From UHGV virus genome UHGV-0308808: a DNA stretch of 44,982 bases. One strand, written 5' to 3'. Below the pieces are notes generated by a model. It saw only the letters and a list, made by a program, of their open reading frames with translations, made no database searches and was not told the DNA's origin. This document shows, in pieces, positions 7,880-37,775 of this stretch (positions are counted from its first letter, which is position 1; every line of letters starts with the position of its first letter). The DNA comes from a virus. The position numbers and the translations under genes are program-made.

Positions 7880-7898
7880 CTTATCTCTCCTCTTTATT

Positions 7899-7908
7899 GC
7901 TAATTAGC
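7899..7908. promoter_or_regulatory. palindrome GCTAATTAGC, copy a
   Basis: Perfect 10-bp palindrome, ~19 bp upstream of the 77-aa ORF start and 6 bp past the Cro-like ORF stop. Confidence 0.4.
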
Positions 7909-7913
7909 TTTTT

Positions 7914-8093
7914 TTAGATTAAAATTTTTTCAATACTATCTAAAACTTTAGGTTGTAAATTATTGATGGCATTTCTCAATCCCCATGGAGTATATCCTAA
8001 TTTTTTAGCTAACTCTCCAAATTTAAGATCTTTATCAATTAATTTCTTTTTTATTTCTTTCCATTTTTCTTTTGCTAATTCTTCTTTATCCAT
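7914..8093 (-). CDS. small HTH DNA-binding protein (Cro/excisionase-like), 59 aa; not in the supplied ORF track
   Basis: Manual translation gives MDKEELAKEKWKEIKKKLIDKDLKFGELAKKLGYTPWGLRNAINNLQPKVLDSIEKILI. An HTH-like segment is GELAKKLGYTPWGLRNAI. An operator-like palindrome sits in its upstream region. Confidence 0.45.
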   Translation of the reverse strand: MDKEELAKEKWKEIKKKLIDKDLKFGELAKKLGYTPWGLRNAINNLQPKVLDSIEKILI

Positions 8094-8125
8094 TTTTCAC
8101 TCCTTTACTTTCATCTCACAAAAAA

Positions 8126-8135
8126 GCTAATTAGC
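8126..8135. promoter_or_regulatory. palindrome GCTAATTAGC, copy b
   Basis: Lies ~33 bp upstream of the Cro-like ORF start on the minus strand. Confidence 0.4.
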
Positions 8136-8137
8136 AT

Positions 8138-8171
8138 TTTTTTCTTTAAAAAAAAGCTTTCACTAAATAAA
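8138..8171 (-). terminator. rho-independent terminator downstream of the repressor-like gene (minus strand)
   Basis: On the minus strand, an 8-bp stem GCTTTCAC/GTGAAAGC with a 10-nt loop is followed by a run of 8 T residues. Confidence 0.55.
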
Positions 8172-8229: not shown

Positions 8230-8823
8230 TTATTCCAAAATAATTTTTCCAATAACTGTTCCATACTCTTTAACATTTTCTTCTATCTTAACAAAAATTG
8301 GGGGTGCAGCTTCTTCTCCTAACAAAATATATTCAGTTGGATTTATCATTCTTTTCTTTTTTATACAATATTCTCCTTTTATTTTATATACTCCACTTTG
8401 ATTATTTCCTACAAGTCTTGATTTTTCAATTAAAATTGTAATATTGTCAGTTTTTATTCCAACTATTTCACCTTTTAAATTTAAATCTATCTCCTCAAAA
8501 TATCTTTCTGGATTTAAAAAAGCTGTTGCTAATTCACTATATACTTTAATCTTATTTTTTTCTTTTTTTTCTGCATCTAAGTATCCAATCTCTTGGAATA
8601 ATTGTATAACATCTAAATCATATAAATTACATAAATTTTTTAACAGTATTGCATTTGGAGTTTTTCTTTCCCCTTTTTCCATTCTTAGAACATCACTAGT
8701 ATTTATAATAAATCCTGTTTCTTCCAACTTTGTTTTTACTTCCTCTAGTGTTAAATTAAGTTTTTGTCTTTCATTTCTCAACAAATTACCTAGTTTAATA
8801 ACTTCTGTTTCTGAAAGTTTCAT
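8230..8823 (-). CDS. XRE-family HTH repressor-like protein with a C-terminal CI/LexA-like region. The start is re-assigned to the internal ATG at 8823 (MKLSETEV...), which is preceded by GGAAGGGAGTGG.
   Basis: N-terminal HTH: LSETEVIKLGNLLRNERQKLNLTLEEVKTKLEETGFIINTSDVLRMEKGERKTPN. A strong RBS precedes the internal start. The ORF-track start at 8919 would add an unlikely hydrophobic leader. Confidence 0.55.
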   Translation of the reverse strand: MKLSETEVIKLGNLLRNERQKLNLTLEEVKTKLEETGFIINTSDVLRMEKGERKTPNAILLKNLCNLYDLDVIQLFQEIGYLDAEKKEKNKIKVYSELATAFLNPERYFEEIDLNLKGEIVGIKTDNITILIEKSRLVGNNQSGVYKIKGEYCIKKKRMINPTEYILLGEEAAPPIFVKIEENVKEYGTVIGKIILE

Positions 8824-8952
8824 AACAACCACTCCCTTCCTTTTCAACTTAATTATAGTATACCTCAATATTAATAAAAAAAATAGCTTTTTAGCAACTT
8901 TTTTATTTTTGTATTGCAAATTAACTTTTTTAGTGTTATTATTAAATTAATA

Positions 8953-8972
8953 AAATGCTAATTAGCATTTTT
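8953..8972. promoter_or_regulatory. 20-bp perfect palindrome AAAATGCTAATTAGCATTTT, copy c of the GCTAATTAGC core
   Basis: Read directly. It lies upstream of the repressor-like gene. Confidence 0.45.
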
Positions 8973-9010
8973 TAAAATAAAAAAAGACCCCGTAGGGTAT
9001 GAGGTCAGAA

Positions 9011-9118
9011 TTATCTGTACTTTCTAATCAACCATATCACAACGATAAGAAGCAATCCACCTAGAAGAATTGCTCCACCATCAAAGATGATAGTTAGTTG
9101 CTCGATTGTTACAGTCAT
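9011..9118 (-). CDS. small hydrophobic peptide (35 aa), type I toxin-like; not in the ORF track
   Basis: MTVTIEQLTIIFDGGAILLGGLLLIVVIWLIRKYR has one TM helix and a basic C-terminus. The RBS AAGGAGG lies 7 nt upstream of the ATG. Confidence 0.35.
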   Translation of the reverse strand: MTVTIEQLTIIFDGGAILLGGLLLIVVIWLIRKYR

Positions 9119-9291
9119 TTCTGTACCTCCTTAAATATTTGTTTGTCTACCTTGCTTAAGGGCAGAATAAAAGCCCCAATAAATTATTAGGGCTAATATT
9201 CTAAGCTTAATCAAACAAACATTTAAGTACCCATACGGGTTCTAGGTAATTAAATTATAGCAAGTTTTTGACAAAAAGTCAAATTGTGATT

Positions 9292-9365
9292 AATCTACTG
9301 AATAGAGTGTCCTAGAGTTAAATAAGACTTGGCAGTCGGTCTAGGATGCTCTCTTGAGTAGATTA
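9292..9365 (+). repeat. 74-bp direct repeat, copy 1. It is internally an imperfect hairpin (ATCTACTGAATAGAGTGTCCTAG ... CTAGGATGCTCTCTTGAGTAGAT).
   Basis: 72/74 identical to 11478-11551. Confidence 0.8.
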
Positions 9366-9391
9366 CTCAAATACTAAAAAGGTGGTGTCTT

Positions 9392-9637
9392 ATGAAAAAA
9401 TGGATTAGAAAATCCTTGATAAGAAAATTAAATAATTTTAAGGGATTAACTCCAGCTAATGTACATAGAGTAGAAACTACAACTATTACATTTTTAAATG
9501 ATAATAGAATAGTTAAAATCTGCACTATTAAAGATGATGAAGTTATTCTCATTCCTAAAAAAATTTCTAATATTATGGTATCCAGTAGATTTTTTGCTAT
9601 TAGAGATATTTTAAAAAATTTTTTTAATCAAAAATAA
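9392..9637 (+). CDS. hypothetical protein
   Basis: 81-aa ORF. The RBS AAAGGTGGTG lies upstream. Confidence 0.4.
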   Translation: MKKWIRKSLIRKLNNFKGLTPANVHRVETTTITFLNDNRIVKICTIKDDEVILIPKKISNIMVSSRFFAIRDILKNFFNQK

Positions 9638-9668
9638 ATAGTATTATATTTCTTTAAGTGGAGGATAT

Positions 9669-10031
9669 ATGAAAAAAAATAGAAATAAAAATAGAGAGCT
9701 ATTAATTTTAGGTAGAACTAAAAAAATAGTTTTAAAAAATAGCATTTCTTTTTTAAATGAAGTAAAAGAGGATAAGAGAAAATTTTATAATAGAAAAAAT
9801 ACAGAAACATTTTGGGATTTTCAAATAGCAGTAGCTAGGTGTCTAATAATTTACAAAAAAAGAATAATAAAACATAAATATTCCTGTATTTCTAAAAAAC
9901 GTATAAAGAAACAAAAGGGAATAAAATTAAAAAATAATTATTATTCTACTCAAGCTAAATTAACAAGTTTTTATATAAGCAGAGTTATGAACTTTATTAA
10001 CCAAAATTCACAAGGAGTTTATTATGAATAA
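9669..10031 (+). CDS. hypothetical lysine-rich protein
   Basis: 120-aa ORF. The RBS GGAGGA lies upstream. Confidence 0.35.
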   Translation: MKKNRNKNRELLILGRTKKIVLKNSISFLNEVKEDKRKFYNRKNTETFWDFQIAVARCLIIYKKRIIKHKYSCISKKRIKKQKGIKLKNNYYSTQAKLTSFYISRVMNFINQNSQGVYYE

Positions 10032-10264
10032 AGATTACTTGAATTATTTTATTTTTACTACATTTGAGCAAATTATTTACCAAATAATAGTTGTTATTAT
10101 CCTTGATTATTTATTATCAAAAAAATAAACCTTGCTCAATTAGCAAAGTTTATTCAATTTATTATTATTTTTGTATATTTTTACTCAATTGTATCCTTAT
10201 TAACTTATTTTGGAATTTTTATACTTGCATTTCTTAGCCATAATTATAGCTAAGAAATGAATGC

Positions 10265-11437
10265 TTAATCTTTATTTTCGGAAATATTTAGAATTACTTT
10301 AGCTTTATTTTTTTGTAAATCAATTTTATATTTTCCCATAAGAATAGAAGCCTTATAGTTTTTAGAATTAACAAAATTATCATAAAGAAAATTTAATTTA
10401 CTTAATATTGTACTATTTATTCTGAGGAAATTACATTCTGGATCCAAAACAAGAAAAGCTCTACTCATATCAGATAAGAATTTTTCATAATTTTCATCTG
10501 TATTATCTTCTGATACTATTGTAACTTTTGATAAATTTTGACTTTTAATATCAAAAGTATACTTAACATAATTTTTTTGTTTTGCTGGGATTATAAAATC
10601 AACAGTTGTTTTATTAACTTTTTCTAAATAATCCGCATTATCTATATCTCCCATACTTAAACGAGAATAATTTAATCTTTCTGGAAATTGTTTAATTGAA
10701 ATACTAAATGGATATATGTCATCTATCTCCTTTATTTTCAAGTCTGATAATGAGATATCTCCTGCTATATATTTTTCTATTTGAGATAACTGGTTTTCAT
10801 CAAAGTTTAAATTGTTTGAATAAAATGCGACATTAGAAATCTTACTATCATTTTCTTCTAAATAAAGAGTTCCAAAAGTTTGATTTCTATTATTGACAAT
10901 ATAATAAATATAAGTATTATCCTTTTTTTCTGAAGGATTTCCTAATTTAGAAAATATCTCATTTAATGAAGTTCCAACTTTTATTGGAGTTATATTTGAA
11001 ATTTGATTAATACCTAATTTACCAATAATATTTTTACTCAAAGTTAAATTATAATATTTCATTTGAGGATATAGAGCTTGAATTTCAAAATCATTTTTTC
11101 CTAATTTATTAATATTGTAATACAACTGAAAATTATTAGCATCTTTCTCAGGTCTTTTTTGAGTAAATGGAAATTTGAATGTAAAAAAATAATTTTCATA
11201 GTCTGGATTCTTCATAATTAAGTCTTCTGCAATATTTTTTAATTGCTCTTCTGTAGGAAGATTATTTTCAAATAGATTTAGAGAAACTATACCTTGTAAT
11301 TTTACTGAATTAGCTCTTTCCTGATAATAGTCATATGGAATAACTATTTTAGTATCAGGTACTTGAGATTTTTTCTCTTCATCTCCACATCCTAATAATA
11401 AACAAATAAAACAAATAAACAACGCGATTTTTTTCAT
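10265..11437 (-). CDS. lipoprotein (lipobox LLGCG), moron-like
   Basis: The N-terminus MKKIALFICFICLLLGCGDE is a signal peptide with a lipobox Cys. The gene is flanked by the 74-bp direct repeats. Confidence 0.6.
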   Translation of the reverse strand: MKKIALFICFICLLLGCGDEEKKSQVPDTKIVIPYDYYQERANSVKLQGIVSLNLFENNLPTEEQLKNIAEDLIMKNPDYENYFFTFKFPFTQKRPEKDANNFQLYYNINKLGKNDFEIQALYPQMKYYNLTLSKNIIGKLGINQISNITPIKVGTSLNEIFSKLGNPSEKKDNTYIYYIVNNRNQTFGTLYLEENDSKISNVAFYSNNLNFDENQLSQIEKYIAGDISLSDLKIKEIDDIYPFSISIKQFPERLNYSRLSMGDIDNADYLEKVNKTTVDFIIPAKQKNYVKYTFDIKSQNLSKVTIVSEDNTDENYEKFLSDMSRAFLVLDPECNFLRINSTILSKLNFLYDNFVNSKNYKASILMGKYKIDLQKNKAKVILNISENKD

Positions 11438-11477
11438 AAAAAATCTCCCCTTATAAAAAATATTTATTCAATAGCAT

Positions 11478-11551
11478 AATCTACTGAATAGAGTGTCCTA
11501 GAGTTAAAAAAGACTTGGCGGTCGGTCTAGGATGCTCTCTTGAGTAGATTA
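11478..11551 (+). repeat. 74-bp direct repeat, copy 2
   Basis: 72/74 identical to 9292-9365. Confidence 0.8.
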
Positions 11552-11776
11552 GTTCTGTGAAGTTTCTTCATCTGGGATATACTCGATTATATCTGTAATT
11601 TGACAATTAAAAAATTTACATAGTTTTGCAACTGTTTCAAAACTTACAGTTTCAAGTCTATCTCCATTATAAATTTTTCTTAAAGTTTCACGGCTAATAT
11701 TTACCTGTCTTGATAATTCAGTAACATTTTTAATTTTTTTATCAAGCATAATGTAACCAAGATTAGATTTTAGCAT
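11549..11776 (-). CDS. XRE-family HTH transcriptional regulator (repressor-like), divergent from the plus-strand early operon
   Basis: 75 aa. HTH segment: IKNVTELSRQVNISRETLRKI...VSFETVAKLCKFFNCQITDI. Confidence 0.65.
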   Translation of the reverse strand: MLKSNLGYIMLDKKIKNVTELSRQVNISRETLRKIYNGDRLETVSFETVAKLCKFFNCQITDIIEYIPDEETSQN

Positions 11777-11872
11777 AAATACCCCCTTTTATAATTTGTG
11801 CTTTTAATAATTATAACATAACTTTTTCTAAATCAATAATATTTTTTGCCTACTATAATAAGCAAAAATATA

Positions 11873-11902
11873 TTGACAATAGCATTTATAATATGCTAAA
11901 AT
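11873..11902 (+). promoter_or_regulatory. sigma70-like promoter (TTGACA, 18-bp spacer, TGcTAAAAT extended -10) for the rightward early operon. A 19-bp palindrome TAGCAT-TTATAAT-ATGCTA (11880-11898) overlaps it as a candidate operator.
   Basis: Read directly. The palindrome uses the same ATGCTA/TAGCAT hexamers as the AAAATGCTAATTAGCATTTT sites. Confidence 0.45.
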
Positions 11903-18568: not shown

Positions 18569-18610
18569 ATAAAAAAGGACATTGGAAATTGAATAAAAAG
18601 TTGAGAAATA

Positions 18611-18690
18611 ACTTGTAATTAAAGGAATAGTAAGGTAATATACACACAACCTAAGAAATACAAGGCTAGAGAGCCAATAAGGAGGACATT
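18611..18690 (+). promoter_or_regulatory. conserved promoter-leader element, copy A. It comprises TTGTAA, a 17-bp spacer, TAATAT, and a 5'UTR with AAGGAGGA.
   Basis: Near-identical to 21584-21664 and 22084-22140. Confidence 0.5.
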
Positions 18691-19375: not shown

Positions 19376-20809
19376 ATGTCGAATAGTTCTTCTTTTCCTG
19401 CTAAAATTTCAGCTATTTATTGCAGGGAAAGCACAGAAAAGCAAAATATACAAAGTCTTATAGATATGTGTAAAAAAGCTGCTAAAAAAATAAATCTTCA
19501 AAATATAAAAGTTTATTATGATGTAGCATCTGGGTACAATAAAGACAGAGAACAATATAGTAAATTAAAAGAAGATATCCAAAATAATTTAGTTGATACT
19601 TTAGTATTGTATGAAAGTTCTAGGCTTACAAGAGATGAATTGGAGCATCATATATTTTATGGATTATTAAGAGTTCATAATGTTAAAGTTTATACTGTTA
19701 CACATGGTTGGTTAGACTTACAAGATGCTGATGATACCTTTCTGACTAATCTTTTAAATTTATTAGATGCTAGAGAGGGAAGGAAAACAGCTAAAAGAAG
19801 TAAGGACAGAATGACTGAATTAGCAGAGCAAGGGAGATGGACTGGAGGACCAGCTCCCTTGGGATATAAATTAGTTAATAAAGAGCTGGTAATAGTTCCA
19901 GAGGATGCAGAAAAGGTTAAAACTATTTTTAAACTTTTTCTTGATGGAAAAACCAGACAATCCATTGCTAATTTTTTTGGATATGAAGTAAAAAAGGTTA
20001 GAAGATTATTAGAAAATCCCGTCTACATTGGAAAATTAAAATTCCATTCTGTTGAAATAATTAATAAGAAAAAAATTCTTCATAAAGATTATAAAGTGTT
20101 GAATGGGATCCATGAGCCTATTATAGATGAAAGTACTTTTTCCCTGGTACAAGGTAAATTAAAAAATATTAAGGTTGAAAGAAATACAGATGTATATATC
20201 TTTAAAGATTTAATAAAATGTACTTGTGGAAGAAAGATGTATCGGGTTGTAAATAAATATAATTATTTAAAAAAATCAACCAATGAAATTTCTAGAAAAA
20301 CAGAGAACCTATATTATTGTAGAACTTCTGATAAATATAAAAGTCTTGGGTGTGGTGCTATTGGTATTCATGAAGAAGAGTTATTTGAAGAAGTTATGGC
20401 TTCTTTAAAAAAAATTATTTTTTCTTTAGAAGTAGAGAACATTGATACCAAATTTGATGATTATCAATCTCAATTAGTTCTTTATAAAAAAGAGTTGGCT
20501 TCTCTCTCTGGAAAAGAAGAACTCCTAGCCAGGCAGTTATTAAACTCTCTTATATCTGAGGAAGTTTTCGAAAAGTTAATGAAAGAGTTAAAAGAAAAAA
20601 AGGCGTTCCTGGAGGAAAAAATCAAAAATTTAACTACATTAATTACTAATAAAAAAAATACTAATAAAAATTCAGAGATATTAAAAAAATATTTTTTTAA
20701 ATTAGAAAAGGAAAAAGCTCCAGAAAAAATAAATAATTTTTTAAAACTTATAATAGATGAAATCGAAATGGTAAATGATTATAGATTCTACATCCATTTA
20801 AAATTTTAG
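19376..20809 (+). CDS. large serine recombinase (resolvase/invertase catalytic domain, recombinase domain and zinc ribbon)
   Basis: The N-terminus has AIYCRESTEKQ, the serine-recombinase catalytic motif. C-terminal Cys clusters are CTCGRKMY and YYCRTSDKYKSLGC. Length is 477 aa. Confidence 0.8.
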   Translation: MSNSSSFPAKISAIYCRESTEKQNIQSLIDMCKKAAKKINLQNIKVYYDVASGYNKDREQYSKLKEDIQNNLVDTLVLYESSRLTRDELEHHIFYGLLRVHNVKVYTVTHGWLDLQDADDTFLTNLLNLLDAREGRKTAKRSKDRMTELAEQGRWTGGPAPLGYKLVNKELVIVPEDAEKVKTIFKLFLDGKTRQSIANFFGYEVKKVRRLLENPVYIGKLKFHSVEIINKKKILHKDYKVLNGIHEPIIDESTFSLVQGKLKNIKVERNTDVYIFKDLIKCTCGRKMYRVVNKYNYLKKSTNEISRKTENLYYCRTSDKYKSLGCGAIGIHEEELFEEVMASLKKIIFSLEVENIDTKFDDYQSQLVLYKKELASLSGKEELLARQLLNSLISEEVFEKLMKELKEKKAFLEEKIKNLTTLITNKKNTNKNSEILKKYFFKLEKEKAPEKINNFLKLIIDEIEMVNDYRFYIHLKF

Positions 20810-21405: not shown

Positions 21406-21583
21406 TGTTTTATTCGTTTGTATTTTCGGTTTTTTTCTTGCGGAAAAGACCAATTCCATCTCCAAATGGTTGCTGGTTTAATAAAAAAATAAATATATCT
21501 ATGCCCCCAGCATTTCTCCTTTATTACTAATTATAGCATTTCTAATTTTAATAAACAATATTTTTCTAATTTCCTTAGAAATG

Positions 21584-21664
21584 ACTTGTAATTAAAAGAA
21601 TAGTAAGGTAATATACACACAACCTAAGAAATACAAGGCTAGAGAGCCAATAAGGAGGATTATA
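21584..21664 (+). promoter_or_regulatory. conserved promoter-leader element, copy B
   Basis: ACTTGTAATTAAAAGAATAGTAAGGTAATATACACACAACCTAAGAAATACAAGGCTAGAGAGCCAATAAGGAGGA. Confidence 0.5.
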
Positions 21665-22045: not shown

Positions 22046-22083
22046 TGGGAATCCACTAACTTTTATTTTACTTTTCATAAATA

Positions 22084-22140
22084 ACTTGCAATTAAGAGAA
22101 TAGTAAGGTAATATACACACAACCTAAGAAATATAGAGGA
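22084..22140 (+). promoter_or_regulatory. conserved promoter-leader element, copy C (truncated leader)
   Basis: ACTTGCAATTAAGAGAATAGTAAGGTAATATACACACAACCTAAGAAATA followed by TAGAGGAG. Confidence 0.45.
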
Positions 22141-22149
22141 GTGATGAAA

Positions 22150-22755
22150 ATGGAAATTAAAAAATTAAAATTTATTTCAAAAGTTAAAGATTTAAAAGAG
22201 TATATGGAAAGAGTTCAAGAACCAAAATATGTTGAAGAGGAAGAGGTAGCTATTATAAAAACTATAACACTTTCAATTAAAGAATTCAAAAAATTTACTA
22301 GTGATTTTTTTGAAACTCAAGATTTTTTAATAAATACTTGTGATTGGTTAGAACAAGAAAAAGTTTTCACGGCAGTAAGAGTAACTGATGGAGCTACTAA
22401 AATCGTAGTTTATACTTATGGAAATAAGTATGCTAGATATGTGGCTGTTGAAGTAGAACCAAAAATTGAAATAAAAACCTTATCCTTTGCTAGTAAACCT
22501 TCTGATATTGTAGAAGCCAAAAATACTAAATATAGAGAAAGAAGTACTGTGGCAATTGTAAAAACAATTATTTTATCTAAAAAAGAGTTTCTGGCTTTTA
22601 TAAATGACTTTTTCCATGAATGGAGTTTTTTAAAAGAAACTTGTATAGAATTAGAGGATGGTATTTTTACAGCTGTAAGAATAACTGATGGGGTTACTAA
22701 AATTGTAGTAGATACTCAAGGATTCAATTATGCTAGATATGTAGCACTAGAATAG
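22150..22755 (+). CDS. hypothetical protein made of two tandem ~95-aa homologous domains. The likely start is ATG at 22150 (MEIKK), since GTG 22141 and ATG 22144 are too close to the RBS.
   Basis: Internal duplication: VAIIKTITLSIKEFKKF...FTAVRVTDGATKIVVYTYGNKYARYVAVE versus VAIVKTIILSKKEFLAF...FTAVRITDGVTKIVVDTQGFNYARYVALE. Confidence 0.45.
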   Translation: MEIKKLKFISKVKDLKEYMERVQEPKYVEEEEVAIIKTITLSIKEFKKFTSDFFETQDFLINTCDWLEQEKVFTAVRVTDGATKIVVYTYGNKYARYVAVEVEPKIEIKTLSFASKPSDIVEAKNTKYRERSTVAIVKTIILSKKEFLAFINDFFHEWSFLKETCIELEDGIFTAVRITDGVTKIVVDTQGFNYARYVALE

Positions 22756-24920: not shown

Positions 24921-25880
24921 TTAAATTAGCCCTTTTTCTCTCTTTAATTGCCTAATTTTTTCTCTATTTTCTGCCCCTGTTTTTGCTTTAATATAATGCT
25001 CTCTAGTAGTATTTATATTATTATGATTAGCAAATTCAGAAGCTGTATTTATATCTGCTATATTCTTTAAAAGGTTTATAGCTGTTTTTCTGAGAGTATG
25101 AGGGTATAACTTATCATTTCCTAATAACTCTCCTATCTTTTTTATTCTACTTCTAATAGTAGATTGAGCCATCTGTCTACATTGTCCACCTTCCTTTGTT
25201 ATAAATAAATAATCTGATACTAAATTATTCTCTTTTCTATACTCTAGCCATTCTTGTAACACCTTTTCAGTATTATCAAGAAAAATTACATCAACTATCT
25301 TATTACCTTTTTCTTTTACATCTTTAAAATACCCCTCTTTTAAGTTTAATTGTGAAAGTTTTAAATTTTGTATTGCTGAAATTCTATTAGCACTTTCTAG
25401 GAATAATTCCCAAAGTAATCTAGATTGAATATCAAATTTCTTTGAATTATGTTGCATAAGTATTCTAGCTTTGATTATGTCCTCTATTGTAAGATAATAG
25501 CTTTCTCTTCTCTTATCAAAACTACCTTTTTTTAACCTATCTAATTTATGCTGAAATGGATGATGAGATATTAAATCTCTTTTCACACACCAGATATAGA
25601 ATGAAGAGATAGCTGTAAGCTTGTTATTTATTGTCTGATTATTGTTACCAGCTTCCCTACAATGATTTATATACCTCTCTAAAATAGAGACACAATTTTT
25701 TATTGTACTATCGCTTAATAATAGTCTATTCCCTTCATATTTCTGTAAATACTTCATATACTGTTTCATATTACTCTTATAAACTCTATAAGTAGTATTT
25801 AAAGTTTCATAGTTCCTTGCTTTGTTACTCTCTAAATACATTTGATAAACTTCCATATTAGCTTTGTTAAATTTTTCCAT
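24921..25880 (-). CDS. tyrosine site-specific recombinase, proposed shufflon recombinase (Rci-like role). The start is re-assigned to ATG 25880 (MEKFNK), preceded by AGGAGGA.
   Basis: Catalytic residues are conserved: the Arg in ESANRIS, the His/Arg in HTLRKTAIN, and the Tyr in REHY. The gene sits immediately next to the half-site at 25934-25947. Confidence 0.75.
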   Translation of the reverse strand: MEKFNKANMEVYQMYLESNKARNYETLNTTYRVYKSNMKQYMKYLQKYEGNRLLLSDSTIKNCVSILERYINHCREAGNNNQTINNKLTAISSFYIWCVKRDLISHHPFQHKLDRLKKGSFDKRRESYYLTIEDIIKARILMQHNSKKFDIQSRLLWELFLESANRISAIQNLKLSQLNLKEGYFKDVKEKGNKIVDVIFLDNTEKVLQEWLEYRKENNLVSDYLFITKEGGQCRQMAQSTIRSRIKKIGELLGNDKLYPHTLRKTAINLLKNIADINTASEFANHNNINTTREHYIKAKTGAENREKIRQLKREKGLI

Positions 25881-25933
25881 TTTGTTAAAATCCTCCTGTA
25901 ATTTAATTTTGACACTATATTGTATCAAATTTT

Positions 25934-26245: not shown

Positions 26246-26550
26246 GTACCTAAAGTTCTCCAATAAATTTTATTCCCTCTTTCAGCTTGAACTTTAAAAT
26301 TATTTAATGTAATACTATGTATTAGAAATTCTGCTGATTCAGTCCAAAATTCTGTATTTCCTCTGTTTGTAGCACTAATATTATAATTAATATTAGTATA
26401 TTTTATAGGAAGAGTAATTAAAGTTGCACGAGTTCCACCATTAGGATATGATACAATACCACCTTGTTCAATTATTCCATTAGAATATTTTATATAATAT
26501 GTTCCATCACTATTAAACTTCATATCAAGTATCTGAGGTAAATTCTGTAA
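26242..26550 (-). other. silent cassette E (-), 102 aa: LQNLPQILDMKFNSDGTYYIKYSNGIIEQGG...WRTLGT. It is convergent with D.
   Basis: In-frame from the minus-strand arm of site 2. It includes track ORF 26242..26523. Confidence 0.7.
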
Positions 26551-26561
26551 TTACAGAATTT
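26540..26561. repeat. crossover site 2, perfect 22-bp palindrome AAATTCTGTAATTACAGAATTT
   Basis: Read directly. Confidence 0.85.
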
Positions 26562-26823
26562 CATTAATGTTGGAACAAGTTATTGTTATATAGGAGGTAT
26601 CTTAATCCAATGGGGAACATTAAGCGGATTGAAAGCTAGTACTACTATTTACCAAACTTTTCCTAAAGCATTTAAAAATACTAATTATTCTGTTGTATAT
26701 CAAAAAATTAGTGCTGACCACAGCAATAATACTCCTATGAAAACTTCTGTAAAAGAAACAACTAGATTTGGAGTATATTCTTATGGAGTTTCTAGTGTAG
26801 ACTGGTTAGCAATAGGGGTTTAA
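26551..26823 (+). other. silent cassette F (+), 90 aa: LQNFINVGTSYCYIGGILIQWG...VDWLAIGV
   Basis: In-frame from site 2. It includes track ORF 26629..26823. The codon before the L codon is TAA. Confidence 0.7.
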
Positions 26824-27062
26824 TATCCGATTGCTAACCAAGGAATAGATCTTGGCTTCGAACTAGCTCCAAAGTTCATATCATTAAAATAAAAATATTC
26901 ATTAGTCCAACTTATAGTAGGATTAGCACCAGCAGTAACAATTGTAAAACAGGTATTAAATTTCACTGGAAAAGTTACTTTACTAGAACCAGATTTACCC
27001 CACTGTAATAACAGTTTTCCAATATAACAATAATTACTGTTCATTGTAGTTAAATTCTGTAA
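26820..27062 (-). other. silent cassette G (-), 80 aa: LQNLTTMNSNYCYIGKLLLQWG...IPWLAIGY
   Basis: In-frame from site 3. It includes track ORF 26820..27044. It is convergent with F, with the stops overlapping. Confidence 0.7.
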
Positions 27063-27073
27063 TTACAGAATTT
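27052..27073. repeat. crossover site 3, perfect 22-bp palindrome
   Basis: Read directly. Confidence 0.85.
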
Positions 27074-27353
27074 AAATAATAATTTTTATGAATACTATCC
27101 TAACACAAGAGAATTTAATATTCCTATAGAATTTAACAATGCTTTAATTTCAGTATGGACTTACAATACAACTACTGCTAGTATGGAAGATACTCCAATG
27201 TATCTTTTTACTTTTTTAGTAAAAGATATTGATGTTTTTAAATTCTATAATGGTGTTAGTGGTGGATATGCTTCAATTGATTATAATAATAAAAAATTAA
27301 TTAGTTCATCTATTCATTACATAAGAAAGATAAATATTTTTATATTTAATTAA
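27063..27353 (+). other. silent cassette H (+), 96 aa: LQNLNNNFYEYYPNTREF...IRKINIFIFN
   Basis: In-frame from site 3. Confidence 0.65.
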
Positions 27354-27357
27354 ATAT

Positions 27358-27627
27358 TTAAATACCAATAGCTATCCAGTCAAAACTCATTGTTCCAGAA
27401 ACTCCACCAACGTCTTGAGAATAATATGTAAAATAAGTAGAAGTAACATTAGTTACTTGTAATATATTATCTATGTTTGAAGGTTTTTCTGTCCTTAAAC
27501 TTTGGGAAGTTAAGACTACAATATTTTTTTTAATAAAAGGAGATGAAAATATAAGTTTTCCAGTTTTAGCATTTGTTATATTTTCTAATCTACCTATTTT
27601 TATTTCAATACCAAGTAAATTCTGTAA
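27358..27627 (-). other. silent cassette I (-), 89 aa: LQNLLGIEIKIGRLENITNAK...MSFDWIAIGI
   Basis: In-frame from site 4, convergent with H. Confidence 0.65.
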
Positions 27628-27638
27628 TTACAGAATTT
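27617..27638. repeat. crossover site 4, perfect 22-bp palindrome
   Basis: Read directly. Confidence 0.85.
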
Positions 27639-27927
27639 AGGCGATATCAATAAAAATACAATAGGACATTTTACGGATATAACAGGAATTAAATTTTGTT
27701 GGGGAACAACAGGAACATTATCTGCCTCAAGTAATACTTTAATAACTTTTTCAGAGGCATTTAAAGAAAAAGTTTTTTCTATTCAAGCTACAATATTATC
27801 TAATTCAGGAATAGCAGGAAATAAGTCAGATTATGTTTTTGTAAACTCCATAACTTTATCTAATTTTAAATTAAAAATTGGTTCTGATTATGGATTTGCA
27901 GTATCTTGGTTAGCAATAGGCTATTAA
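27628..27927 (+). other. silent cassette J (+), 99 aa: LQNLGDINKNTIGHFTDITGIKFCWGTTG...FAVSWLAIGY
   Basis: In-frame from site 4. Confidence 0.7.
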
Positions 27928-28178
27928 ATTCCAATTGCTAGCCAAGGAATTTTTACACTATTAGGTTTCCCAGATACTCCCCAGTTTGTATCGTTAAAAT
28001 TAAAACTAGTTAAAGTCCATGAAATAGTTGGAGTATTACCAGATGTTATAACAGTAAAAACTGAACTTTTAAAAGGAATAGGAAAACTTTTACTTCCAGT
28101 TGTTGTAGCTCCAGTTTGAATAATAAGTCCATTGGTAAATTGGATATATTTACCAATGGAGTTAGAATTTAATACCTG
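27924..28178 (-). other. orphan cassette C (-), 84 aa: TGLNSNSIGKYIQFTNGLIIQTG...KIPWLAIGI. It is homologous to cassette G but lacks its own crossover site, and begins 1 nt after the cassette B stop in the +1 frame.
   Basis: Manual translation. It shares SK.FP.PF and TPTISWT motifs with G. Confidence 0.5.
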
Positions 28179-28512: not shown

Positions 28513-30498
28513 TTATATATATGGGAAAAAGGTTATAGATTGAGAGTCATACCCTCCTGCACAATAGATTACGTCTTCTTTCTTTACGGGATATATTAAT
28601 CTAGTAGCAGAACTATCTCTTGTTCTATAATCTAGATTAGTACCATTTATCCTTATTGTAGTAGTTATATCATTTGAACCATAGAAGTGTATCTGAATAA
28701 TTCCATCTTGAAGTATTGTGTTATTTTTACTCCAATTTAATTTTTGTCCTTTTGAATAGTCAGGAGTTCTATTGAAATTCTGTAATTTACCCAATAAATC
28801 ATTATTAGATATTGCTTCAAAGTAATTTGCGTCTGCATAGTTTATACTTGTAGCTTTTATACATTTGTAAACTTTTTTTGTGGTACTATCATAATAGGCA
28901 TAGTTTACTGTCTTTGCACTAGAAGTATTAAGACTTCCTCCGTATGTAAGTCCTAATATCTCGGCTAATTTAGCTCCTTCTAATACTGTATTTGAAGTAG
29001 TTCCAAAATTTTTATTAAAAGCTCCATTTTTTTTGAAGGCTGGTTCTGCTCCTATTCCACTAGCTGTAATATTAATACTTTTAGCTGCTGCTCCATCATA
29101 GCTCACTGGATTTTGTCCATTCATCTTTATTTCAAGAGCATTAGGATTTTTCATACTTGTTGGAAAATCTGTAATATTTGCTTTTGTATGAGTATGACTA
29201 GAATCAGCAGCTCCTATGCTAGCTGGAGTAATATTAATATTTTTAGTAGCTGCTCCATCATATGTATAAGCAGTTCCACTATTTAATTGAATAGATAAGG
29301 CATAAGGATTTTTCATACTAGCAGGAAAGTCTGTGATATTTGCTTTTGTATGAGTATGACTGCTTGGAGTAAAAGAATTAGGTTTTCCTGTAATATCACT
29401 CCAAGTAATATTTGTCCATTGAGCAGCTCCAGATGATAACCATTTTAGAAAATTTCCACTAACCCCATTTGCAGGTATATGATTATTTCCATTCCCAGTA
29501 GGATGAGTATATTCAGGAGTTCCATGTAATGTTCCATCTTCATCAACTGTTAAATTATTCCCTACCTTTATTCTTCCTAATTGTGTTTTAGTTGCTTTTT
29601 TTACTAGCTCATTATAAAGTTCATTAATGGCTCCAACTATTGTTTTTACCACGGTTTTTAGAGTGCTATCTTCTTTATTTTGTTTAGTTTCATTTAAAAT
29701 TTTTCCTTGTTTACCTGAAAGAGCTTTTGTAGTACTATCAGTTGTAAGATTATCTACTACATTTAATTGAATATCATTATCATTAACAATAATACCATCA
29801 TTTTTAGATACAATAGAGGTCCTTCCAGAACTATCAACAGTTAATCCTTTACCTATAATTATTCTTCCTAATATAGTTTTTGATGCTATTTTAGAAATTT
29901 CTGTTAATAAGTTCTGTGCAGTACCAGTATAACCACCTTTATCTAATTTATTAGTAAAAAGTTCATTTATTGCTTCCCAAACAATTTTGGCAGCTGTCAA
30001 TAATCTATTTTCATGTAAATTTTGTTTTTTAGCCAATTCTTTATCTAAATATTCTTTATCTACCCATAATTCTTTTCCTGTCCAGTTAACTATTGTAGTT
30101 TCATTATTAGTAGCCATTATATTAACATAATATCTAAATTTGATTGGTGTCTTGCTTGCTGGCGGCATCCAGGTAGCTTCATCACCTTCATTTATATACC
30201 AGTACAGAATTTCTTCTTCTTCATCTAATGCGTATATTCCTATTTCTCTTGGAAAGTATCCAGTTTCAATATCTTCATTACTAAATAGTACAGTTAATTT
30301 CAAATTATTTTCTATTTGTTTTTTTTCTAATATTTCAACTTCTTGTTTTATTGCTTTTATATTAGTAAATGTGCTAGGATCCTCATCATCTGATATTTTT
30401 CCATCTCCTATTTTTACTTTAACTAATTTTATTCCTTCTCCTGTTGCTTGGCATTTTGCTAAATATTCGCTCCCTCTCTTTGTAATACCATCAAACAT
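28513..30498 (-). CDS. tail fiber protein. The currently expressed variable C-terminus (cassette A) runs 28513-28788.
   Basis: 661 aa, Ser/Thr/Gly/Asn-rich. It contains internal near-repeats HTHTKANITDFP[AT]SMKNP. It lies downstream of the baseplate genes and is followed by the shufflon. Confidence 0.75.
   Translation of the reverse strand: MFDGITKRGSEYLAKCQATGEGIKLVKVKIGDGKISDDEDPSTFTNIKAIKQEVEILEKKQIENNLKLTVLFSNEDIETGYFPREIGIYALDEEEEILYWYINEGDEATWMPPASKTPIKFRYYVNIMATNNETTIVNWTGKELWVDKEYLDKELAKKQNLHENRLLTAAKIVWEAINELFTNKLDKGGYTGTAQNLLTEISKIASKTILGRIIIGKGLTVDSSGRTSIVSKNDGIIVNDNDIQLNVVDNLTTDSTTKALSGKQGKILNETKQNKEDSTLKTVVKTIVGAINELYNELVKKATKTQLGRIKVGNNLTVDEDGTLHGTPEYTHPTGNGNNHIPANGVSGNFLKWLSSGAAQWTNITWSDITGKPNSFTPSSHTHTKANITDFPASMKNPYALSIQLNSGTAYTYDGAATKNINITPASIGAADSSHTHTKANITDFPTSMKNPNALEIKMNGQNPVSYDGAAAKSINITASGIGAEPAFKKNGAFNKNFGTTSNTVLEGAKLAEILGLTYGGSLNTSSAKTVNYAYYDSTTKKVYKCIKATSINYADANYFEAISNNDLLGKLQNFNRTPDYSKGQKLNWSKNNTILQDGIIQIHFYGSNDITTTIRINGTNLDYRTRDSSATRLIYPVKKEDVIYCAGGYDSQSITFFPYI
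28775..28788 (-). repeat. crossover site 6 (half-site), inside the fiber gene, encoding KLQNF at the constant/variable boundary
   Basis: Minus-strand reading gives ggt AAA TTA CAG AAT TTc, translating GKLQNF. Confidence 0.8.
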
Positions 30499-34532: not shown

Positions 34533-34726
34533 GGTGCTACTTTTTCTTCATAAGTTTTAGGAATTTCCTGGTATTTTATTTTGATACCAGCTTCAAAAAT
34601 TAAAGTTCCATGATATCCTGGATTTTTTTCTAATAAAGTATTATATAGTTTCGAATCTCCAAATAGCTTATAAGAGATACTATCCCAGGTATCCCCTAAT
34701 ACCGTTATATATATTTTATCTTCCAT
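34517..34726 (-). CDS. tail protein X-like (LysM-like)
   Basis: 69 aa. ITVLGDTWDSISYKLFGDSKLYNTLLEKNP matches the Phage_tail_X/LysM pattern. It lies immediately after the tape measure gene. Confidence 0.5.
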   Translation of the reverse strand: MEDKIYITVLGDTWDSISYKLFGDSKLYNTLLEKNPGYHGTLIFEAGIKIKYQEIPKTYEEKVAPWRRR

Positions 34727-37700: not shown

Positions 37701-37775
37701 AGATAATGCAGCTCCTATCCCAATAGATATTGCCAGTTCCTTTAATGCCATTTTTCCTCCAAATAAAAAAGCCAC
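34716..37775 (-). CDS. tail tape measure protein
   Basis: 1019 aa. The N-terminus has a long coiled coil (KE repeats). The mid-region has Gly/Ala-rich hydrophobic repeats (LGSTGLQVGKTIG). The position is right for a tape measure. Confidence 0.8.
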   Translation of the reverse strand: MAFLFGGKMALKELAISIGIGAALSTSFSKNIKSAGTLMDQLKNKTSDLKKTQRDLKKYENMQLIRKETRSEIIYSQKELVKLKNRLLEVDKEGRTLGSTYKLLEKEINQLSSKEKLLKDRMAMVAIEMKEGKGDNKKLQEEYRKLQKETKGITNELTPLKKRLNEVGKELSSNSKESTNLGKQQLNLENKIQSLREKQKKNINEIRETTKQLKEQSISIKDTAKSYEELEKKANAYNKALEHYQKANAIKEKGSKIASYGNLPLKAAGVATVAGAGALSEAIRAETAFAGVKKQFDFETAEEEAKFKEDLLKLVAEKRIAVSLEELYGMAANAGQSGLNKDEAVDYIEAAANMGMAFNMSREQASEYMFAWRNTFEMNLTQLKELTDQINTLGNNTGASEIKIAEFITRMGNLPTVVGMTTNQTAALGASLMEMGMAPEIAATGAKRLLTILNKGMAATGSEKEALNILGLDPDYLAKATLEDPEKALETVFFKLSKLKEHEQGAVMTMLFGEEGKVAAANIMGAFDRLKRNINLAKDSNIYSGATNKEAEIQKNTAANQLQVLKTEFDVIKADLGTELLPLVKEGATYLKAFLEKLLKIMKEDPEGFKRMVKLFVYGTGALYGFGGALKLIGGLLHGYAGIVNLVGLATEKELGLKTIRAAKTITQQFKNLGSAGLQVGKVIGSGILNGGKLVSNGLVKFTKMSIQYLKLLGSTGLQVGKTIGLGILNGGKFLIGGLAKLGSLGMAALASPITWVILGITALIAAGYMLYKNWDTVKEKAVQLKGKVVELVDKYWYLLGPIGYMIKGGKALYENWDTIKLKAGELKDKIVNMVTGAIEQWNIFKEKSLAILGIPFDWLDKKIEGIKEKGGHMLDGVLEIYEKIKNFSITDSIKNGASWLGEQFNIPQFATGGVVNSPTLALIGEGGSSESIIPHERTPKSLNLWEKTGKLLGAYKPTSTTNNNSSATITFSYSPTIYANDSNSLETTLKKDKGDFERWFKESMNKYEKERFRRGYGR

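Follow-up and report, generated by a model that had tools for sequence, protein, structure and literature searches.

Short conserved stem-loop motifs, known as promoter-early stem-loops (PeSLs), are repeated between non-essential genes in the hyperplastic region of T4-type phages, where each ORF has its own copy composed of a strong σ70-type early promoter and a terminator (Arbiol et al. 2010, PMC2839356; Comeau et al. 2014, PMC4122927). Insertions, deletions and replacements between closely related phages end in these motifs, which are thought to serve both as regulatory signals and as portable homology for modular shuffling. Integron attC sites, including those found in clusters lacking an integrase (CALINs), are imperfect palindromes in which the stem framework is conserved, the unpaired positions are fixed and the terminal structure varies; one co-oriented copy lies at the ORF 3’ end of each cassette, and most cassettes lack a promoter and depend on a single upstream one for expression. 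Enterobacterial REP and BIME elements are also imperfect palindromes, located between cistrons or immediately after stop codons, and they act on the mRNA stability or translation of the flanking genes as well as being substrates for recombination. Liang, Rudd and Deutscher are said to have found in 2015 that REPs no more than 15 nt from a stop codon lower expression of the upstream gene. RNase III sites, such as the R sites of phage T7 and those of SP82, are repeated, related hairpins longer than 20 bp that contain an internal loop and lie between cistrons in one orientation, and at the sib/tI site of lambda a longer stem, formed only when transcription reads through, encloses a terminator.

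We analyzed the 44,982-nt viral genome UHGV-0308808 (hereafter, the window), in which two 75-nt direct repeats, identical at 73/75 positions, bracket a segment of cargo genes (Table 1). Both repeats belong to a conserved, previously undescribed type of hairpin found after a small repressor gene in Funu1-like temperate phages of Fusobacterium. The sequence-only reading had placed a 74-bp repeat pair at 9292 and 11478; the pair is real, and each copy extends one base further to the left. A 27-nt arm probe matched exactly these two sites in the window and had no match in 100 dinucleotide shuffles. Each copy forms a long imperfect hairpin with 26-nt arms (TAATCTACTGAATAGAGTGTCCTAGA / TCTAGGATGCTCTCTTGAGTAGATTA), and the stem-loop capacity proposed earlier was borne out by RNA folding, with z-scores of -4.0 to -6.0 for the window copies and no shuffle matching the native fold. 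A search for tRNA and tmRNA returned nothing.

Table 1. Positions of the hairpin copies and of the genes and predicted signals discussed in the text.
Feature	Position	Strand	Evidence or description
HP1 (hairpin copy 1)	9291..9365	-	Covariance model R1, 69.4 bits on minus strand
HP2 (hairpin copy 2)	11477..11551	-	Covariance model R1, 68.6 bits on minus strand, 28.9 bits on plus strand
Small Cro/CI-type HTH_26 repressor gene, 75 aa	11549..11776	-	PF13443, E 1.7e-20; PHROG transcriptional repressors
Lipoprotein gene, 390 aa, first cargo gene after repressor and hairpin	10265..11437	-	ORF list; signal peptide/lipobox
Terminator-like 14-bp hairpin and T-run, between the converging lipoprotein gene and plus-strand small ORFs	10123..10155	.	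Terminator scan
Reverse-oriented cargo	9392..10128	+	ORFs of 81 aa (9392-9637), 120 aa (9669-10031) and 34 aa (10024-10128)
Putative promoter for reverse cargo	9268..9296	+	TTGACA, 17 nt, TAATCT; read by eye from the sequence
Strong predicted promoter just beyond HP1	9254..9282	-	TTGACT, 17 nt, TATAAT, with TG; promoter scan
Divergent promoter region upstream of repressor	11852..11902	.	Promoter scan
Tyrosine recombinase, the only one in the window	24921-25928		XerC/D-like; XerC 97 bits; 13 kb from the array

The hairpin family is tied to the HTH_26 repressor gene. The first three minus-strand bases of HP2, TAA, are the stop codon of this gene, and 39 nt separate HP2 from the ATG of the downstream lipoprotein gene. 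The ORFs reported earlier between the repeats were all found, namely lysine-rich ORFs of 81 and 120 aa on the plus strand and, on the minus strand, the 390-aa ORF with a signal peptide and the lipobox LLGC. The lipoprotein gene had been described as opposite to its neighbors, which is correct with respect to the two small ORFs but not with respect to the repressor gene, which is on the same strand. Nor is it an odd reverse-oriented insert, as the order repressor, hairpin, lipoprotein is common to hairpin families A to D.

The lipoprotein gene is probably co-transcribed with the repressor gene, because the consensus promoter scan predicted no σ70-type promoter between HP2 and the lipoprotein ATG. 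The predicted promoter on the repressor side of the divergent region is on the minus strand (TTGTCA/TATAGT, 11879-11852), and that on the early-gene side is on the plus strand (TTGACA/TAAAAT, 11873-11902). The repressor-lipoprotein transcript probably ends at the terminator-like hairpin, and HP1 may be absent from it because HP1 lies downstream of that terminator. HP1 lies distally in the cargo segment, flanked on one side by the start region of the plus-strand 81-aa ORF, whose SD and ATG abut it, and on the other by the strong minus-strand promoter; the flank carrying this promoter is a conserved backbone that closes the variable region in L001, L158, L165, L166, L169 and L173. Homologues of the reverse-oriented cargo are found in other arrangements (L161, L171, L166 and L173), and homologues of the lipoprotein occur at the equivalent position in L165, L209, L236, L203, L229, L241 and L243. 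The lipoprotein has only seven homologue clusters and no match in Pfam, NCBIfam, PHROG or PADLOC, and its AlphaFold model (pLDDT 75) gave no match in a fold search of the PDB. For the cargo genes as a whole, function searches of Pfam, NCBIfam, PHROGs and PADLOC yielded only SWIM, DUF2321 and weak matches.

About 72 related hairpins were found at repressor-linked loci in Fusobacterium phage contigs, scoring 52-80 bits with covariance model R1 and all lying on the repressor strand. In 0.89 Mb of unrelated viral DNA, consisting of viral contigs from two loose-palindrome scans that gave only chance palindromes, R1 produced a single match of 21.7 bits; a generic inverted-repeat finder was too noisy in DNA of 27% G+C. 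The repeats are members of a family and not a scar specific to this cassette, and what they primarily accompany is the small HTH_26 repressor gene, at its 3’ end, rather than the cargo. A bracket of two hairpins is likewise present in the published phage Funu1 of F. nucleatum 7_1 (KR131710, 9184-9264 and 10837-10921), where the hairpins are unannotated, and this phage is the only one among 50,697 GenBank phage records with a family B hairpin. The window’s cassette has no DNA match among GenBank phages. No Rfam 15 family matched the window at gathering score, searches of Rfam with hairpins of families A to F at E values up to 10 or 1 gave only noise, and a literature search for the hairpin sequences and for Fusobacterium prophage repeats returned nothing relevant.

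The sequence-only reading had itself asked whether the repeat might be a generic REP element of the host. A degenerate inner-stem pattern, based on family A arms only, was run once against 185,579 species genomes and returned one Fusobacterium prophage-like locus and one chance palindrome, and a host REP is rejected on this result. Enterobacterial REPs are found on the chromosome by the hundred, in either orientation, and are mobilized by RAYTs, whereas the Fusobacterium hairpins all share one orientation and a single region of one phage group, with no RAYT found. Correia elements and similar MITEs provide another comparison, being intergenic elements of ~100 nt with 26-bp imperfect terminal inverted repeats and TA ends that are transcribed into hairpin RNA. 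The hairpins could accordingly be viewed as a miniature selfish element, either MITE/Correia-like or REPIN-like, that inserts between genes and has no function for the phage. Their conserved inverted-repeat ends and variable interior, the TA at both ends and the GTAG motif of family A arms, and the presence or absence of a hairpin next to similar genes (e.g., repressor paralogues 2 and 3 of L152) are all in keeping with such an element, but we consider this origin highly improbable. The copies show no dispersal, mixing of orientation or parent IS, and no further copies were found elsewhere in two complete phage genomes. Target-site duplications are absent, the flanks of 39 copies showing only the palindrome’s own TA, and no transposase or RAYT (Y1 transposase) was detected among the 30 window ORFs scanned with Pfam. 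The hairpin has also co-evolved with one gene family, and its compensatory evolution across deeply diverged families that remain attached to that gene points to vertical descent under selection, not transposition.

The hairpins are imperfect and 57-97 nt in length, with a stem of 26-28 bp and a highly variable apical part of 5-41 nt, and families with different arm sequences retain this one architecture. In families A to E taken together, the paired share of stem cells is 93.2% versus 70.9% in shuffles, a value reached by none of 500 shuffles, and double compensatory changes are present in 15 of the 24 stem pairs; when the partner column was slid as a control, pairing was 31-45%. Pairing in the stem is under selection. 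Every copy collected has a C·C mismatch and a CA/CA internal loop, although the search pattern partly selected for both. The unpaired positions are symmetric (C·C, G·A and the 2x2 CA/CA loop) and are not bulged bases, the sole asymmetry being a bulge on the loop side whose position varies. Family A stems have TAATCTAC...GTAGATTA at their base, other families TTAATCTTT...AAAGATTAA or similar, and no GTT triplet is conserved.

Family A, to which the window copies belong, has arms that are near-100% identical and loops that vary freely. This pattern could result from a sequence-specific protein, such as a recombinase, which weighs against the reading we favor below. A repressor operator is rejected as the explanation because identical arms occur across at least five repressor specificity groups of 27-60% identity. 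The long stem, the 2x2 internal loop and the flanking stop codon and SD are the structural features of an RNase III site, and the small hairpin and T-run nested in family A loops resemble lambda sib. Unlike these sites, to which they have no sequence similarity, the Fusobacterium hairpins are ambiguous as to the strand favored for folding.

The strand opposite to the repressor folds more stably in 19 of 22 representative hairpins, by 8-11 kcal/mol in the window, which counts against the reading we favor below; genomic context and folding energies indicate opposite strands. The functional RNA might then be made from the window’s plus strand, as a 5’-UTR or intercistronic element of the reverse cargo or as an antisense transcript into the repressor gene. 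In the plus sense, the recurrent CA/CA loop becomes a tandem G·U and the u3 C·A mismatch also becomes a G·U pair, about ten contexts including HP1 have a reverse-strand SD and ATG ~20-27 nt past the hairpin, and the putative plus-strand promoter overlaps HP1. This promoter is below the threshold of the promoter scan, however, and its -10 hexamer is formed by the first six bases of HP1; a transcript from it would start inside the left arm, and the full hairpin therefore could not form. In most copies the plus-sense flank is antisense to coding sequence, leaving no gene to serve, and it is in the repressor sense that the hairpin is tightly linked to a preceding stop codon and a following SD. Families B and C have U-tracts in that sense only, and families D and E carry G·U pairs, and fold better, in it as well. 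Both G·U and C·A substitutions occur in the family. Overall, a functional opposite-strand RNA appears unlikely.

The placement of the copies is highly regular. The first copy starts at the repressor stop codon or within 4 nt of it, and further copies separate the downstream cargo genes, which are mostly promoterless. In 50 distinct contexts, an upstream ORF was co-directional with the hairpin in 42, and in 34 of these 42 its stop codon was at hairpin position 0 or -4. An ORF with an SD and ATG followed at 10-69 nt downstream in 37/50 contexts, the SD and start codon usually being within 10-40 nt after the hairpin. About ten contexts have the hairpin between divergent gene starts.

Such positions might also be expected of plain intrinsic terminators for the repressor gene and each cargo unit, in which case each cargo unit would need a promoter of its own and recombination at the hairpins would be a mere side effect. 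Canonical terminators do stand where the hairpin would sit in distant relatives of the repressor gene, a T-run directly follows the stem in all contexts of families B and C (15/15, with no A-run before the hairpin), and the loops of family A hold a small hairpin followed by a T-run. Families A, D and E, however, have no U-tract after the stem; family A has a mean of 3.3 T in the 10 nt that follow versus a background of 3.6. Neither window copy has a T-run after its stem, was called by the terminator scan, or has the combination of a G+C-rich stem and U-tract that defines an intrinsic terminator. The SD of the next gene often begins 1-15 nt past the hairpin and therefore leaves no room for a promoter, and, as noted above, none is predicted ahead of the window’s lipoprotein gene. 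An AT-rich stem of 26-28 bp with conserved internal mismatches also exceeds the needs of a terminator, and we regard simple termination as an improbable role.

Related phages lose homology to one another at the hairpins or within them, and these points mark where accessory genes have been swapped. Through the repressor, L167 and the window share 96% identity, and the homology ends at 11476, the hairpin end, with different cargo beyond. L165 has 49-69% identity over the repressor and operators and 98-100% from 11503 leftward, carrying the window’s lipoprotein cargo with a different repressor. HP2 is a mosaic junction on both its sides. Homology between L169 and the window begins exactly at 9365, and a 97.7% match between L211 (355-1710) and L203 (3856-5210) begins at the hairpin’s first base. 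The array of L158 is empty: its repressors, a single hairpin and the backbone flank are present, but no cargo. Some insertions and deletions comprise exactly one cassette plus one hairpin, and crossovers map to both arms, in one case ~23 nt inside the 5’ arm. As an exception, the replacement between the window and OWPF01000288 has its right end at ~9635, which is a gene end and not a hairpin. The earlier proposal of a variable cargo segment bracketed by the repeat pair stands, and the comparison it suggested, of related phages with and without the cargo, found both kinds. Its suggestion of att-like scars of a mobile cassette is not supported, and no att-type core sites or target-site duplications were seen.

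One-cassette-plus-one-hairpin exchange and the empty array would also fit attC-like sites that fold as single-stranded DNA or a cruciform and are acted on by a site-specific recombinase (a phage XerC/D-like or serine enzyme, or a host enzyme), forming an integron-like capture platform served by the repressor promoter. The hairpins resemble attC sites in length, in being imperfect palindromes whose arms are conserved, whose non-Watson-Crick positions are fixed and whose apical part varies, and in their co-orientation, one per cassette, 3’ of ORFs whose stop codons they often contain. The cargo is mostly promoterless in both systems, and the window encodes a large serine recombinase in addition to the tyrosine recombinase. 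The latter is not an integron integrase by its score with TIGR02249 (18.6 bits versus a cutoff of 265), however, and is distant from the array. Its relatives were not found on other hairpin-bearing viral contigs, a weak test given that most returned contigs were short, and arrays of families B to E have no recombinase gene within 2.5 kb. A canonical integron attC is rejected, since there is no IntI and there are no R boxes: the R’’/R’ core sequences RYYYAAC and GTTRRRY are absent, as are L boxes and the GTT crossover triplet. In contrast to attC sites, the mismatches are symmetric and not extrahelical, crossovers occur at no single fixed point, and the array is led by a repressor gene instead of intI and attI. 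We therefore consider attC-like sites unlikely, and it is equally doubtful that a non-IntI recombinase recognizes the folded palindromes and allows the phages to acquire, stack and reorder promoterless cargo behind the repressor promoter.

The explanation we favor, with confidence and doubt about evenly balanced, is that of an intercistronic punctuation hairpin in a repressor-led operon, doubling as portable homology for cassette exchange. The repressor promoter would give rise to a polycistronic lysogenic transcript in which the hairpin would act in cis as an intercistronic structure. It may function as a leaky terminator or attenuator, as a stabilizer or processing site at mRNA 3’ ends, or as an insulator of the next ribosome-binding site, and any such role would set the repressor-to-cargo expression ratio and free the cargo unit from its context. 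As direct repeats with nearly identical arms within a phage population, the copies would also be open to homologous recombination, and recombination between copies in one genome or in co-infecting phages could insert, delete or replace whole cargo units. In the window, HP2 lies between the repressor and lipoprotein genes and HP1 closes the cargo segment, and recombination between HP1 and HP2 would cleanly remove the 2.19-kb segment. The T-runs of families B and C and the canonical terminators of distant repressor relatives also speak for this explanation. The missing U-tracts of the window copies, the position of HP1 past a terminator, the contexts between divergent gene starts and the OWPF01000288 junction at a gene end speak against it. 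Among the three options offered by the sequence-only reading, a structured RNA or stem-loop boundary comes closest to this explanation.

The punctuation hairpin is best read as analogous to the PeSLs of T4-type phages. Both are conserved stem-loops repeated between accessory genes, and indels and replacements between close relatives end within them. Unlike PeSLs, the Fusobacterium hairpins have no predicted internal promoter: the consensus scan found none inside either window copy, and by eye only weak -10-like hexamers (TAGATT or TAATCT) were seen, which are not conserved in other families. Of these, only the first hexamer of HP1 could serve as a weak -10 to a flanking -35. The Fusobacterium hairpins also differ in belonging to the lysogeny operon of temperate phages, where they are anchored to the repressor stop codon, in their much longer stem with conserved non-canonical positions, and in having no sequence similarity to PeSLs.

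The structured element is absent from Rfam, from the annotation of Funu1 (the one published genome that carries it) and from the papers searched. It combines strong covariation with a very specific placement, in which the repressor stop codon leads into the hairpin and the hairpin into a ribosome-binding site. A specific partner, either a protein or an RNase, is predicted from the recurrent C·C and CA/CA positions. The hairpins would explain how lysogeny-expressed accessory genes are exchanged as units among phages of a medically relevant genus, and the exchanged cargo includes lipoproteins, membrane proteins and SWIM or zinc-ribbon proteins, for which exclusion or defense functions are plausible. 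They may be a naturally evolved genetic insulator, or punctuation mark, through which cassettes become interchangeable. Should the hairpin adjust the ratio of repressor to cargo, or should its folding respond to translation terminating at its base, it would bear on how the lysogenic state is set in these phages.

The window contains a single pair of 75-nt direct repeats, the hairpin copies HP1 and HP2, which are identical at 73 of 75 positions. Each copy is an imperfect palindrome with two 26-nt arms around a 23-nt centre, and it folds much more stably than shuffled sequence (z-scores of -4.0 to -6.0). A 27-nt arm probe matched just these two sites in the window and had no match in 100 shuffles. 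The window appears to be a complete temperate phage genome, encoding a portal, large terminase, methylase, ParA, holin and endolysin as well as a large serine recombinase and an XerC/D-like tyrosine recombinase, and among published phages its nearest relative is Funu1, a Fusobacterium phage whose large terminase is 68% identical.

Read in repressor sense, i.e., along the minus strand, the parts of this region follow in the order repressor, HP2, lipoprotein, terminator, reverse cargo, HP1 and backbone. The first three bases of HP2 are TAA, the stop codon of the repressor, whose ORF faces predicted divergent promoters and the early operon. The lipoprotein ATG lies 39 nt past HP2 with an SD ahead of it, and no promoter was predicted between HP2 and this ATG. 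Three plus-strand ORFs (81, 120 and 34 aa) converge on the lipoprotein gene, the first of them starting 26 nt from HP1; the ORFs that the sequence-only reading had placed between the repeats were borne out by an ORF check of the interval. Directly beyond HP1 is a strong minus-strand promoter, TTGACT-17-TATAAT, which is part of the conserved backbone. The promoter and peptide unit listed in the table, most of which (8975-9133) is 98.7% conserved in the related contig L001, may be a leader/attenuator; alternatively, it may comprise a small RNA together with a peptide resembling a toxin or holin.

Coordinates of the hairpins, neighbouring genes and other repeats in the window
Feature	Position	Strand	Details
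HP1	9291-9365		
HP2	11477-11551		
Small repressor gene	11549-11776	minus	75 aa, Cro/CI-type HTH_26, PF13443 E 1.7e-20
Terminator-like hairpin	10123-10155		end of lipoprotein gene, common to converging plus-strand ORFs
Promoter and peptide unit	8980-9282	minus	strong promoter TTGACT/TATAAT; ~55 nt on, terminator-like hairpin 9194-9172; then SD, 35-aa hydrophobic peptide 9118-9011, terminator
Palindrome GCTAATTAGC	7898-7924, 8125-8151, 8956-8982		flanking A-/T-runs
cI-like HTH gene	8230-8919		
83-nt direct repeat	18604-18686, 21577-21659, 22077-22159		98% and 73% identity
Large serine recombinase gene	19376-20809		
Palindrome AAATTCTGTAATTACAGAATTT	26536-26568, 27048-27080, 27613-27645		perfect, 22 bp; spacing ~510-565 bp
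40-nt inverted pair	26803-26846, 27905-27950		
Internal direct repeats	29048-29361, 35551-35788		53-118 nt, 70-90% identity
Large ORFs with internal repeats	28513-30498, 34716-37775	minus	

Other repeats were also observed in the window. The three GCTAATTAGC palindromes surround the cI-like HTH gene and may be operators or bidirectional terminators. The 83-nt repeats, each of which contains a promoter-like TTGTAA-17-TAATAT and ends in AAGGAGGA just ahead of an ORF start, enclose a DUF4241 gene, the large serine recombinase gene and a 187-aa ORF, and are a second repeat-bracketed module of a kind unlike the hairpins. The AAATTCTGTAATTACAGAATTT palindromes and the inverted pair lie in a small-ORF region approximately 0.6-2 kb from the XerC/D-like recombinase gene and may be protein-binding, partition or resolution sites. 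The repeats inside the two large ORFs are probably repeated tail or fibre protein domains.

Pattern scans found the arms of the window copies (family A) in four viral contigs, 18 human-gut metagenome contig stretches and one Fusobacterium ulcerans MAG, and 39 extracted copies gave 31 distinct sequences. In repressor sense the 5' arm is near-invariant and the 3' arm varies in its last few bases; the centres are of at least six unrelated types (5-37 nt), each of which folds into a small hairpin of its own, usually with unpaired T-rich sequence after it. Within a locus, all copies are oriented like the small repressor gene, and arrays built as repressor-HP-[gene(s)-HP]n reach four or five copies per contig (e.g., L167+L173, L161, L154 and L170). 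Two or three tandem HTH_26 repressor paralogues stand in a row in L152 (2108-2920), L158 (5572-6260) and L235 (2501-3060), with a hairpin after some and none after others, and in L169 (1850-1953) the distal hairpin is preceded by 30 nt left over from the 3' end of a repressor. Positions 1-1500 of L159 (OFMH01000275.1) are 40-48% G+C with non-Fusobacterium-like ORFs, approximately 100 nt from a hairpin, the rest of this phage contig being 20-30% G+C; the G+C-richer DNA reflects either chimerism in the assembly or foreign cargo that adjoins a hairpin boundary.

When 37 viral loci were retrieved with an alignment of their repressors, most repressors had a long imperfect hairpin at the stop codon or a few nt off, with arms unlike those of family A. 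Five families of arms, A to E, can be aligned in register. From the base upward they share 8-9 bp of basal stem, a mismatch (C·C or C·T), 7 bp of middle stem, a CA/CA internal loop (2x2), 7-9 bp of upper stem and a variable apex, often with a TTGGGGAA or TTGGCAG loop. In this alignment 93.2% of stem cells are paired compared to 70.9% when shuffled (0 of 500 shuffles as high) and 31-45% in slid controls, and 15 of 24 stem pairs show compensatory double changes. Invariance of CA/CA and the core is in part built in, because the regular expression that collected the copies prescribed the CA/CA positions and some of the core; families F, G and H, which are more distant and were located by position alone, are different at these sites. 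A covariance model made from the A to E alignment scored approximately 72 copies at 52-80 bits, without exception on the strand of the repressor. In the window it found the two known copies and no others, and 0.89 Mb of unrelated viral DNA yielded a single match, of 21.7 bits. The two copies that the model found in Funu1 (KR131710), at 9184-9264 and 10837-10921, are unannotated and enclose four CDS, the first lying directly after an annotated 'transcriptional regulator'. An unannotated ORF start at Funu1 10949, 28 nt beyond the second hairpin, probably opens an ORF with an SD and signal peptide (MKKLILTFFLLLTV...). Among 50,697 GenBank phage records the hairpin sequence occurred in Funu1 only, and an Rfam search returned no family matching the hairpins. 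A MITE/REPIN-like element is a rival reading, and intercistronic REPs are placed alike, but the hairpins are not dispersed. The feature is real and not ordinary: a selected structure tied to the repressor 3' end.

Over its N-terminal 242 residues the lipoprotein shows 40-50% identity to lipoproteins of families B, C and D, which occupy the first position after repressor and hairpin. The same residues match two further contig groups, and in one of these a second hairpin is again present, following a small reverse gene. A homologue behind an S24-type repressor has no hairpin, so the hairpin goes with the HTH_26 gene and not with the lipoprotein. Function searches assigned no role to the lipoprotein or to either small ORF. 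Among the other cargo are multi-pass membrane proteins, SWIM zinc-finger proteins and DUF2321; a role in superinfection exclusion or defence is plausible.

Over 50 distinct contexts, a co-directional ORF ends beside the hairpin in 42, its stop codon starting at hairpin position 0 or -4 in 34 of these, and an SD plus ATG ORF follows 10-69 nt downstream in 37 (with modes around 14 and 24 nt). The repeat unit of families B and C extends over the T-run, SD and ATG (TTATTTTTTATTGAGGGGGTTATTATG); a T-run of at least 4 follows the stem in 15/15 contexts and an A-run precedes it in none. These T-runs, and the ordinary terminator found at the same position in more distant repressor relatives, would suit a plain terminator; in family A a T-run follows the stem at background level. 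Gene context and U-tracts point to the repressor sense as the acting strand. That the RNA acts from the opposite strand is the reading to which computed folding energy points (19/22 representatives): the strands of the window copies differ by 8-11 kcal/mol over the 75-nt element and by about 8.5 and 12 kcal/mol on 88-nt stretches, the CA/CA loop and a C·A mismatch turning into G·U pairs on the opposite strand. In repressor sense, G·U pairs occur in families D and E, and derived single substitutions showed no significant strand bias. In approximately ten contexts, HP1 among them, the SD and ATG of a reverse-strand gene abut the other side of the hairpin, which thus lies between divergent gene starts with no space for promoters. 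The hairpin may also act through both strands, or as DNA.

The sequence-only reading had the repeats bracket a lipoprotein cassette, and comparison of related phages with and without the window's cargo agreed with this, as homology mostly breaks at hairpins. OWPF01000288 (L167 and L173) carries the window's repressor and backbone at 96-99% identity; its homology ends at 11476, given as the last base of HP2, and its cargo continues as 184 aa-HP-71 aa-HP-137 aa. L165 shares cargo at 98-100% identity but repressor and operators at just 49-69%, the switch falling between 11503 and 11600, and homology of L169 begins exactly at 9365. Three tandem repressor paralogues in L158 are followed by a single hairpin and then by the backbone flank, as would be expected of an HP1 x HP2 deletion; L001 has other cargo and no distal hairpin. 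In family B, L211 355-1710 matches L203 3856-5210 at 97.7% from the first base of a hairpin, the two differing by an indel of one cassette plus one hairpin, and another homology block stops approximately 23 nt into a 5' arm. An exception is the right end of the replacement between the window and OWPF01000288, which is the 3' end of the 81-aa gene, where there is no hairpin. The hairpin marks where cargo begins and ends and where recombination junctions fall. A rival reading makes it an attC-like site for site-specific recombination; it resembles attC sites in anatomy and array logic, but the features that define attC, namely IntI, R boxes and extrahelical bases, were not found here.

Most likely, we infer, the hairpin is a cis-acting intercistronic RNA structure in a repressor-led operon, which might act as a leaky terminator/attenuator, be a site of processing or stabilisation, or insulate the ribosome-binding site that comes next. 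As direct repeats with near-identical arms, the copies would also supply homology through which cassettes are gained, lost or replaced. T4-type PeSLs are closest in working, although their promoter is absent from these hairpins; phage RNase III sites are alike in placement. That the hairpins are a new family of structured elements is well supported, and their general kind has precedents, phages being known to carry conserved intergenic stem-loops through which genes are regulated and modules exchanged.
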